Shown here piece after piece: positions 719 through 24,091 of a stretch of 39,570 nucleotides of DNA. Each line of letters begins with the position of its first letter. Position 1 is the first letter of the stretch. The position numbers were made by a program, and so were the translations under genes. The notes under the pieces are model-generated. The model did no database searches and had not been told where the DNA came from. It saw only the letters and a list, made by a program, of their open reading frames with translations. Origin of the DNA: Euryarchaeota archaeon RBG_13_57_23 (lineage in GTDB: Archaea; Thermoplasmatota; Thermoplasmata; UBA10834); contig MGVW01000022.1 of NCBI GenBank assembly GCA_001800675.1, positions 5,130 through 44,699 on the forward strand, read 5' to 3'.

Positions 719-832
719 GCGTGTACCAGAGGCTAGGCGTGCCTCACTATTGAAATGCTCCATTCTACAACTCCGCTCGGACATCATGCCGCCCTGTCCC
801 CGCACCGCGTACCATGCGCGCGACAGACAACG

Positions 833-841
833 CTTATATAT
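833..841 (+). promoter_or_regulatory. TATA box of the 5S rRNA gene
   Basis: cttatatat lies ~30 nt upstream of the 5S 5' end. Confidence 0.6.
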
Positions 842-869
842 GACTTCGATATTAGATGGCCCGAAGAGC

Positions 870-1091
870 GGTCTGACGGCCAAAGTGGCGGGGCCACACC
901 TGGTCCCTTTCCGAACCCAGAAGTTAAGCCCGCCTACGTTCTTCGTGGTACTGAGGTGCGCGAGCCCTCGGGAAGCCCAAGGCCCTTCGGGGCCTCTTGA
1001 CCATAGCGGCTAGGTGTACTAGCCAGGTACCTTCGGGTACAGGGTGAACTGCACTGCTTGAAACCGTTATGGACTTGGTAAGCTGTCAGCC
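870..1091 (+). rRNA. rrf: 5S rRNA with ~100-nt insertion (expansion segment)
   Basis: Contains the canonical 5S motifs CCGAACCCAGAAGTTAAGCC and GGTACTGAGGTGCGCGAGCCCTCGGGAA. The helix I 5' strand CTGACGGC (873-880) finds its complement GCTGTCAG only at 1082-1089, giving ~220 nt instead of ~120. Confidence 0.9.
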
Positions 1092-1201
1092 ATCTCTTCA
1101 TTTCAAATCTTCATCCGTTCCATCCGGCGTAGCGGGAGTTGGTACTCACCGCGAAGCCTTTATAAGAACACAGATAGCTTGTCGCTCAGGAGCTGGCAAC
1201 G

Positions 1202-8268: not shown

Positions 8269-8907
8269 GTGTTCCTTACACGCGTGGCTGTTCACAGAGT
8301 TGGTGCAGAGGCACGGTTGGACTCCGCGGTATGGTTGCGCAGATCCGTGGTTTTCAAGCAGCGCGTCGTGAAGGGCTATCGGCACCCAGTGCTCGACAAG
8401 TCGTTGCAGGCCGCCAGGATCAAGAACGAAGTAAGGCTGATGCTCGAGGCGCGCAGGGCGGGAATCGCAGTTCCAGTCATATACGCCGTCGATTTGGAAG
8501 GCAACAGGATCGTCATGGAGGAGATTCCGGGTGTGCGCGTCAAGGACGCGCTCGAATCGCTCCCGAAGGATCGAGCAGAAGAGATCTGTAGAAAGATCGG
8601 GGCGATTGCCGCGCGGATGCACATGAACGATATTGTCCACGGTGATCTCACGACGAGCAACATGCTCCTGGACGGAGAGCGTATCGTGGTGATCGATTTT
8701 TCCCTTGGCTCCAAGACCTCGGAGGTCGAGGACAAGGGCGTGGACATGCACCTGCTCGAGGAGGCTTTCCACTCCGCTCACTATAAGCGAATCGAGCTTT
8801 TCGAGGTTGTCAGAGACTCCTATGTGCGGTCATATCCAGGCGGAGCTGATGTGCTGCAGAAAGTGAAGGAGATCGAGAAGCGCGGACGCTACATGCGCAA
8901 GGAATAG
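8269..8907 (+). CDS. bud32: KEOPS complex kinase Bud32 (stand-alone)
   Basis: GAEA, KxYRHPxLD, HGDLTTSN, EDKGVD, C-terminal IEKRGRY. The start could be GTG 8284. Confidence 0.9.
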   Translation: MFLTRVAVHRVGAEARLDSAVWLRRSVVFKQRVVKGYRHPVLDKSLQAARIKNEVRLMLEARRAGIAVPVIYAVDLEGNRIVMEEIPGVRVKDALESLPKDRAEEICRKIGAIAARMHMNDIVHGDLTTSNMLLDGERIVVIDFSLGSKTSEVEDKGVDMHLLEEAFHSAHYKRIELFEVVRDSYVRSYPGGADVLQKVKEIEKRGRYMRKE

Positions 8908-23977: not shown

Positions 23978-24091
23978 CCCGACTTAGCTCAGACTGGTTG
24001 AGAGCGGCTGACTGTAGTGTGGTAATCGGCACGACCGATCACGGTCGCTGAAATCAGCAGGCCCCCGGTTCAAATCCGGGAGTCGGGACCA
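23978..24091 (+). tRNA. tRNA-Tyr (GTA) with 35-nt intron at 37/38 (24018-24052), encoded CCA
   Basis: Acceptor stem CCCGACT/AGTCGGG, anticodon arm GCTGA-CTGTAG[intron]A-TCAGC, T-arm CCCGG-TTCAAAT-CCGGG, ACCA end. Confidence 0.93.

Follow-up and report, generated by a model that had tools for sequence, protein, structure and literature searches.

An expanded 5S rRNA gene with a conserved, self-folding segment in Thermoplasmatota archaea

Positions 870–1092 of a 39,570-nt stretch of DNA from Euryarchaeota archaeon RBG_13_57_23 (the window, meaning the whole stretch that was analysed) are confirmed as one 5S rRNA gene with an expansion of approximately 100 nt. Large rRNA expansions are considered rare in archaea. 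Here, an expansion of the Halococcus kind, at the Halococcus site, is nearly fixed in 12 of the 29 sampled families of the class and recurs in other classes, with a covarying fold and a presence in environmental RNA. We hold with considerable confidence that this is a single working 5S gene with its own promoter, combining a normal core with a retained, self-folding segment of 105 nt that is old and has most likely been lost repeatedly.

The expanded 5S rRNA gene

The 5S family RF00001 matched the window over the full model (model positions 1–120) at 872–992, a stretch of 121 nt (75.6 bits against a gathering score of 38, E-value of 2.1e-14); the split match predicted by the sequence-only reading was not obtained. 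Membership of the family rests on a score above the curated threshold and on the presence of helices II–IV and of loops C, D and E in the consensus fold, in which helices III and IV show compensatory changes. The core comprises the 5′ strand of helix I, helices II and III with loop C, helix IV with loops D and E, and the top pair of helix V (945–976). The segment begins directly 3′ of loop E (GGGAAG) and of C976, which belongs to the first pair of helix V, and normal relatives have 7 nt at its position, giving a net growth of approximately 98 nt. Its limits, and those of the other features, are given in Table 1.

The Rfam alignment takes 984–992 as the 3′ strand of helix I, which introduces four non-standard pairs. 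This placement (872–880/984–992) was rejected, as only 50.2% of its cells are paired, equal to shuffles. The strand at 1082–1091 is paired in 99.2% of cells, a figure inflated by the collecting pattern, which fixed most of that strand, and a compensatory change from U-A to C-G occurs in all five sequences of families f27 and f29. Helix I therefore forms only with 1082–1091. GGGAAGC at 970–976 and the beginning of this strand, GCTGTCAG at 1082–1089, were found where the sequence-only reading had put them, as were all the other strings that it named (checked twice).

Rfam detected no 16S or 23S gene in the 39.6-kb window, and the 5S gene therefore stands alone.

Table 1 Features of the expanded 5S rRNA locus (window coordinates)
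Feature	Position	Strand	Basis or remark
Archaeal promoter, BRE and TATA box AACGCTTATATAT	829–841	+	Motif at equal distance 5′ of the 5S gene in most of 27 related loci
5′ flank GAAGAG	863–868	+	Pairs with 1094–1099, lengthening helix I; minimum-energy fold
Whole expanded 5S rRNA	870–1092	+	~222 nt; helix I 870–880/1082–1091, RF00001 match, RNA contig over 882–1088
Canonical 5S core	870–976	+	Rfam alignment, consensus fold, coordinates
Expansion segment	977–1081	+	105 nt; defined against normal 5S of the class; model R1, 113.3 bits
H1 hairpin, cUUCGg loop	980–995	+	Compensatory changes in 5/5 pairs; 98–99% of cells paired
P1 5′ strand	996–1009	+	9-bp core at 1001–1009; outer pairs 996–1077 and 999–1074
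Conserved loop CUA	1010–1012	+	Opening CUA of the first CUAG; C 76/76, U 70/76, A 76/76
P2 5′ strand GGUGUA	1013–1018	+	Pairs with 1050–1055
Conserved CUAG and GAAC loops around the P3 arm	1019–1049	+	Loop conservation and P3 covariation
P2 3′ strand UGCACU	1050–1055	+	Pairs with 1013–1018
Conserved loop GCUUGAAA	1056–1063	+	G and one A invariant (alignment columns 230 and 236, 76/76)
P1 3′ strand	1064–1077	+	Covariation and coordinates
CUUGG with competing partners	1074–1078	+	CCAAG 977–981 or linker 996–999; no winner in the window's genus
Helix I 3′ strand	1082–1091	+	Pairing across 76 sequences (99.2% of cells)
3′ flank CUCUUC	1094–1099	+	Pairs with 863–868; T-rich tract next

Fold of the segment

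A consensus fold was derived with RNAalifold from 76 distinct full-length sequences, aligned with MAFFT without structure fitting; three further sequences were excluded, two for masked bases and one for its position at the edge of a contig. The consensus closes helix I across the segment, keeps normal helices II–IV and adds four new helices, with compensatory changes in 27 of 58 pairs. Within the segment, 24 pairs are formed in 91.8% of cells (70.3% in shuffles), and in 21 of them both sides have changed. The covariation score of the segment is 0.635 compared with 0.255 when shuffled; none of 500 shuffles reached it and slid controls gave at most 0.162. The comparison with 5S genes of related metagenome-assembled genomes (MAGs), by which the sequence-only reading had proposed that the fold be judged, thus supports a structured segment.

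The four helices are the hairpin H1 and the helices P1, P2 and P3. H1 is the AGGCCC-TTCG-GGGCCT element at 980–995 that had already been recognized in the letters, and the core of P1 is the likewise recognized 9-bp stem formed by CCATAGCGG (1001–1009) and CCGTTATGG (1064–1072); all seven counted pairs of P1 show changes on both sides. P2 has compensatory changes in four of its six pairs and is paired in 98% of cells. P3 (1022–1045) is built from a base of GCC/GGU (1022–1024/1043–1045) and from GTACC-TTCG-GGTAC (1027–1040), correctly called a hairpin beforehand, which ends in a cUUCGg loop; four of five P3 pairs have compensatory changes. Two other elements of the initial reading were not upheld. 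The motifs of its CTAG/CTAG hairpin (1010–1013/1019–1022) are present, but the pairing lacks covariation, with 147 of 500 shuffles scoring at least as high, and clashes with the covarying P2 (1013–1018/1050–1055), and it was rejected. Its separate third small hairpin is absent from both the minimum-energy fold and the consensus fold, and the stretch concerned is accounted for by conserved loops and the 3′ halves of helices.

Little or no variation is seen at the unpaired CUAG, GAA and G positions, several of which are the same in all 76 sequences. Because the helices vary with pairing kept, around loops that stay constant, the segment is taken to be a selected RNA structure. A kink-turn reading of the loops was rejected by eye, as tandem GA/GA strands are lacking. 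The minimum-energy fold of 860–1102 (−101.7 kcal/mol) closes helix I at 870–880/1082–1091 and includes the flank extension; shuffles of the same stretch have a mean of −88.25 (s.d. of 4.82, z of −2.79), and none of 200 folds as well.

Searched alone, the segment belongs to no Rfam family; the candidates PhotoRC-I (16.9 bits versus 45) and PyrR208 (10.7 versus 64) matched only a cUUCGg hairpin and were rejected. No segment match was found in phage records, and plasmid records matched the core only, in 14 haloarchaeal replicons with normal 5S, and never the segment.

Several clades have an extra 12–15 nt at the tip of P3 (L025, L032, L035 and L070; L033, L053, L090, L093 and L151; L048; L079), which brings the 5S rRNA to approximately 235 nt. 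The segment seems to be still growing at this one point.

Junction with the core

The first pair of helix V, 945–976, covaries (G-C 64, C-G 10 and U-G 1 in 76 sequences), and the normal continuation of this helix (columns 74–253) is paired in none of the 76. The stretch after the segment pairs with the linker that follows H1, at columns 136–252 (U-A 20, U-G 18, C-G 17, G-C 5) and at columns 134–254 (C-G 75, G-C 1); a rival pairing of 3 bp, with the linker before H1, is represented by columns 111–253 (A-U 35, G-U 24, G-C 12). Lower helix V (GUUC/GAAC) is kept in 56–63 of the 63 sequences from outside the window's genus. In all 13 sequences of that genus it reads GUUC/GUAA, with two of four pairs left, and on this comparison of sequences the core there is not fully canonical and appears to have co-evolved in part with the segment.

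A perfect 5-bp pairing of CCAAG with CUUGG (977–981/1074–1078) is found in the window's genus only, where three pairings compete for 1074–1078. The initial reading had pointed to alternative partners of CCAAG and to an ambiguous insertion boundary; CTTGG at 1074–1078 and the rival pairings counted above bear this out.

Flanks, promoter and neighbouring genes

The pairing of GAAGAG with CUCUUC was proposed from the letters as an extension of helix I, and coordinates and minimum-energy fold agree with it. The flanks of relatives compensate each other (GAGAG/CUCUC and GGGAAG/CUUCCC, read by eye at related loci), and the terminal stem covaries and is kept in relatives. Among the 27 related loci, the upstream promoter motif is most plainly conserved in those of family f1. 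From the usual spacing between TATA box and start, and with no start-site data, transcription is inferred to begin near 863. A GGTAC motif lies at 1141–1145, approximately 45 nt past the end of the 5S gene and at a similar distance in many relatives; it is followed by TATA-like TTTATAA (1159–1165), probably the promoter of the downstream gene.

That gene (1202–2089, + strand), directly downstream of the 5S gene, encodes a protein of 295 amino acids with a C-terminal double zinc ribbon. A divergent gene of approximately 250 amino acids lies upstream of 870 on the − strand. The two are syntenic with 5S in 51 and 52 related loci, respectively, all of which have 5S of the f1/f2 type, and neither is present in the other clades with the segment or in the 14 normal-5S loci. 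A protein partner of the segment encoded by a neighbour was rejected on the ground of this restricted synteny. An open reading frame of 194 amino acids (429–1013, + strand) overlaps the promoter together with the 5′-most 144 nt of the 5S gene. No Pfam family matches its product, and in all likelihood the frame is spurious. Farther along the window, Rfam assigns a tRNA to 23978–24088 (+ strand, 54.2 bits) that ARAGORN did not report; its anticodon stem is followed by an insert of 38 nt that is presumably an intron.

Copy number and presence in RNA

The window genome (G000; 66 contigs, 75% complete) contains one RF00001 match, and the 105-nt segment sequence is single-copy in it. Its limited completeness leaves a quarter of the genome out of view. 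Two relatives are closed in a single contig, one of the same genus (G001) and one of the same family (G024), and each has one 5S gene, of the expanded type. The question raised beforehand, whether this is the only 5S copy, is thus answered by one match in each of the three genomes.

Twenty sequencing runs contain the stretch, eight of them recorded as RNA, and contigs of four RNA runs from four studies were compared with positions 600–1400. Run X1 has a contig of 207 nt over 882–1088 with one difference, and run X2 one of 168 nt over 886–1053 with none. The 155-nt contig of run X7 (889–1043) has eight differences and is therefore from a relative. Also from a relative is the 229-nt contig of run X6 (depth of 646), which matches 896–1049 and whose loose 3′ end reads like the equivalent part of a congeneric 5S. 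Contigs in all four studies cross the 5′ junction of the segment, and only that of X1 crosses both junctions. The flanks (600–869 and 1113–1400) have no contig cover in any of the four runs, and the contigs contain neither joints indicative of a spliced form nor loose ends at 976–981.

Junction-spanning contigs, empty flanks and the absence of joints together argue for a contiguous RNA of approximately 220 nt, and against DNA carry-over or splicing. Contigs show presence better than absence and cannot give the ends, level or maturity of the RNA; strictly, they leave room for a precursor or for some carry-over of DNA. Retention of the segment in RNA, rather than its excision, is favoured. The sequence-only reading had left these two possibilities side by side; retention is supported by the contigs and by the poor helix V that a spliced product would have in this genus.

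Distribution

Among 41 related genomes, 38 have a 5S match. Thirty of these relatives' 5S genes were inspected; 20 have a homologous block after GGGAAG and 10 are ordinary, at approximately 122 nt. A pattern scan of public contigs (one genome per species) gave 81 stretches with the segment. All 80 of their titles that were listed name Thermoplasmata, Thermoplasmatota, Thermoplasmatales, Methanomassiliicoccales, Methanobacteriota or Euryarchaeota MAGs. The matches include RBG_19FT_COMBO_56_21, UBA10834 and UBA9653, the first with a 5S nearly identical to that of the window; a 2020 preprint places all three in the GTDB order UBA10834 and, in its accessible portion, is silent on 5S rRNA. The strict pattern proved too narrow, missing five families with a variant helix I (f8, f16, f17, f27 and f29); it was rejected as a census tool, and its counts of 74/401 and 5/401 are lower bounds.

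A covariance model of the segment, R1, was built from 83 sequences. It matched 60 of 151 genomes in a sample of the class, each time over the full model. Occurrence is nearly all-or-none per family: 12 families have the segment (f1 15/15, f2 2/2, f7 1/1, f8 9/10, f15 3/4, f16 15/17, f17 1/1, f21 4/4, f23 3/3, f25 4/4, f27 1/1 and f29 1/1) and 17 sampled families have no R1 match (for example, f6 0/16, f11 0/15, f19 0/12, f9 0/8 and f10 0/7). Inspection found normal 5S genes in f3, f4, f5, f6, f9, f10–f14, f18, f19, f22, f24, f26, f28 and f30. In a sample of the phylum, 19 of 151 genomes matched R1; outside the class, these were f47 (9/9), f49 (1/1), f45 (1/2), f58 (1/3), single genomes of f63, f65 and f67 and, weakly, two of f68. 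The f47 sequences have the same layout and motifs as the segment, and so do further sequences that were inspected. These figures are from samples in which genomes are often incomplete, and the lack of a match means only that none was found in the genomes searched. What had been proposed, a structured 5S expansion of approximately 100 nt in Thermoplasmatota, is real and adjoins loop E; that it is the property of a single lineage cannot be maintained.

Some individual cases stand apart. Two weak R1 matches lie 2.5 kb apart on one f68 contig (G514:C128:5906-6026 and 8442-8562), and genome G155 has a second weak match (G155:C76:1636-1761); these may be divergent or duplicated expanded 5S genes. 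In the expanded 5S gene L146 (genome G123, f27; 45.2 bits), approximately 10 nt are missing from helix III and loop C, which may reflect damage to this copy or a fault in the assembly. The single f20 genome at issue (G060, 98% complete) has no RF00001 match, its 5S gene being either unassembled or too divergent.

Alternative explanations

The segment could be an intervening sequence, either a bulge-helix-bulge intron or a spacer excised in the bacterial manner, which would leave a mature 5S rRNA of normal size or in two pieces. Excision cannot be excluded from gene sequence alone, as Stepanov and Fox (2021) state in the accessible part of their survey, and in most clades the stretch after the segment (CAUGGA, for example) could rebuild helix V, with columns 71–73/254–256 paired in 62–63 of the 63 sequences outside the window's genus. 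Within that genus, AGC/GCU, a UAA bulge and CCAA/UUGG resemble by inspection one half of a bulge-helix-bulge motif. Archaeal introns of this class also place an extra block in a stable-RNA gene, of rRNA or tRNA, and their boundaries are defined by two 3-nt bulges around a 4-bp helix. The locus does not meet this definition: only one bulge (UAA, 1079–1081) and a 4-bp helix are seen, there is no way to draw a second bulge and an inner helix, and the half-motif is lacking beyond the genus. In the genus, moreover, splicing would leave three of six helix V pairs, and the conservation of the internal loops exceeds what a spacer destined for removal would need. The block is present in RNA contigs, which cross the junctions (both of them in X1) with no joined form and no loose end at a junction in the four runs, and we consider excision improbable.

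A disabled 5S copy, with the normal gene in the unassembled quarter of the genome, is compatible with the 75% completeness of G000, and pseudogene-like expanded copies are known in some bacteria, going by the accessible text of Stepanov and Fox (2021). It is difficult to reconcile with the single, expanded 5S gene of each closed relative, with a promoter conserved in relatives, with structural selection on both core and segment across dozens of species, or with RNA that reaches a depth of 646 in one run; we give it very little credence. Virtually none is left for an assembly or binning artefact, or for a mobile element inserted in the gene, in support of which no evidence was found. The same architecture recurs in 81 independently assembled MAG stretches and in RNA contigs, and the segment, single-copy in its genome, is matched by no phage record, is missing from plasmid records that match the core, and belongs to no Rfam family beyond its tetraloop hairpin. 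The reading of a single working 5S gene with a retained segment is therefore the one followed below.

Evolutionary history

The history of the segment was traced on a tree of elongation factor EF-2 from 30 genomes, one or two per family, by a quick search with this single marker; verified labels were expanded for 14, normal for 15 and unknown for f20. The tree needs six changes of state, at least four of which are forced by well-supported branches, and an AU test rejects a tree uniting all carriers (p of 0.00028); the carriers are therefore not one clade. An earlier tree test (p of 0.118) used incomplete labels and is superseded.

Segments from different classes are clearly homologous, and their sequences differ in character from one group of related families to the next, as expected of vertical descent. 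Since the strand after the segment still complements helix V, one deletion would be enough in most clades to return a usable 5S of normal form. On these three grounds, an old origin with repeated loss by simple deletion is inferred to be most likely, over repeated gain, although 5S genes could also have been transferred between lineages.

A more ambitious version can be entertained only tentatively, and we think it unlikely to hold in full. The segment would be an ancient module that pre-dates the split of the classes and was later lost repeatedly, its invariant CUAG and GAA loops would dock a dedicated protein or touch the A-site finger to make a functionally distinct ribosome, and it might even share ancestry with the Halococcus segment, in which case it would be a module exchanged between phyla. 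The losses that this version entails include families of which near-complete genomes were sampled.

Relation to known 5S rRNAs

Compared with the canonical archaeal 5S rRNA of RF00001, with which it shares helices I–IV and loops A–E, the RNA described here is longer (222 nt versus approximately 122 nt), and its 3′ end is misplaced by the Rfam alignment. As the Rfam model reports a tidy 5S of 121 nt, MAG gene calls built on RF00001 may truncate the gene.

The expansion segment of the Halococcus morrhuae type (Luehrsen 1981; Tirumalai 2020; Stepanov and Fox 2021) is among the nearest known counterparts. In the available text of Stepanov and Fox (2021), who list 89 expanded 5S rRNAs from RefSeq, Rfam and 5SrRNAdb, the archaeal ones are confined to Halobacteriales (15 strains), and that text contains neither Thermoplasmata nor metagenomes. 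The Halococcus segment has 108 nt and is inserted between 104.1 and 105, beside loop E (Stepanov and Fox 2021; Tirumalai 2020, as far as accessible). Tirumalai (2020) describes for Halococcus, in the part available, a flexible arm located close to uL18, uL5 and helix 38, together with a four-way junction. Going by these partial sources, the two expansions have in common a large insertion in the 3′ strand adjoining loop E, at the 104.1/105 site, a near-doubling of the RNA, the status of only 5S type in the cell, a predicted extra multi-way junction and a core that is kept. They differ in host phylum, the carriers here being uncultured Thermoplasmatota by their titles, and in spread, which is far wider here (12 of 29 sampled families and further classes) than on the Halococcus side, where it covers four haloarchaeal genera in the text accessible to us. 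The secondary structure reported here is supported by covariation, and helix V is partly remodelled in the window's genus. It is a prokaryotic 5S expansion segment kept in RNA, at the Halococcus site.

The bacterial segments (Thermoanaerobacterium, Desulfotomaculum, Halanaerobium and others) are likewise self-folding modules on a conserved 5S core. To the extent that the source is available, they differ in being inserted at other sites (such as a helix III bulge), in being usually shorter (13–109 nt), in often occurring beside normal 5S copies in one genome and in a patchy spread at the level of strains.

No report of a 5S expansion in Thermoplasmatota was found in the literature searched, which left out most subscription journals and supplements, such as Table S1 and File S1 to the Stepanov and Fox survey, where known expanded 5S rRNAs are listed. 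What the analysis adds to the sequence-only reading is the true fold, in which P2 replaces the CTAG hairpin, the evidence from RNA, the phylum-wide breadth, the patchy but family-fixed spread and the omission of the segment by the standard 5S model.

Implications for the ribosome

As we understand the locus, 870–1092 would be the sole, functional 5S gene of the organism, transcribed independently from the BRE/TATA promoter at 829–841. The RNA would keep the normal 5S core and carry the 105-nt segment on its 3′ strand, after loop E and the first helix V pair. By itself, the segment folds into hairpin H1 and a long three-helix arm, P1–P2–P3, making a multi-way junction with the core. The fold of the segment, the conservation of that fold and the occurrence of the segment in RNA are shown by the data. 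Incorporation into the large subunit is inferred from the status of sole 5S, without evidence at the level of the ribosome; by analogy with cryo-EM of Halococcus, the segment would then project from the central protuberance. Contact of the invariant loops with protein or 23S rRNA is a further inference.

These archaea provide a second, much larger natural set for asking how a ribosome tolerates or uses a doubled 5S rRNA, how such a segment grows and whether it can be lost.
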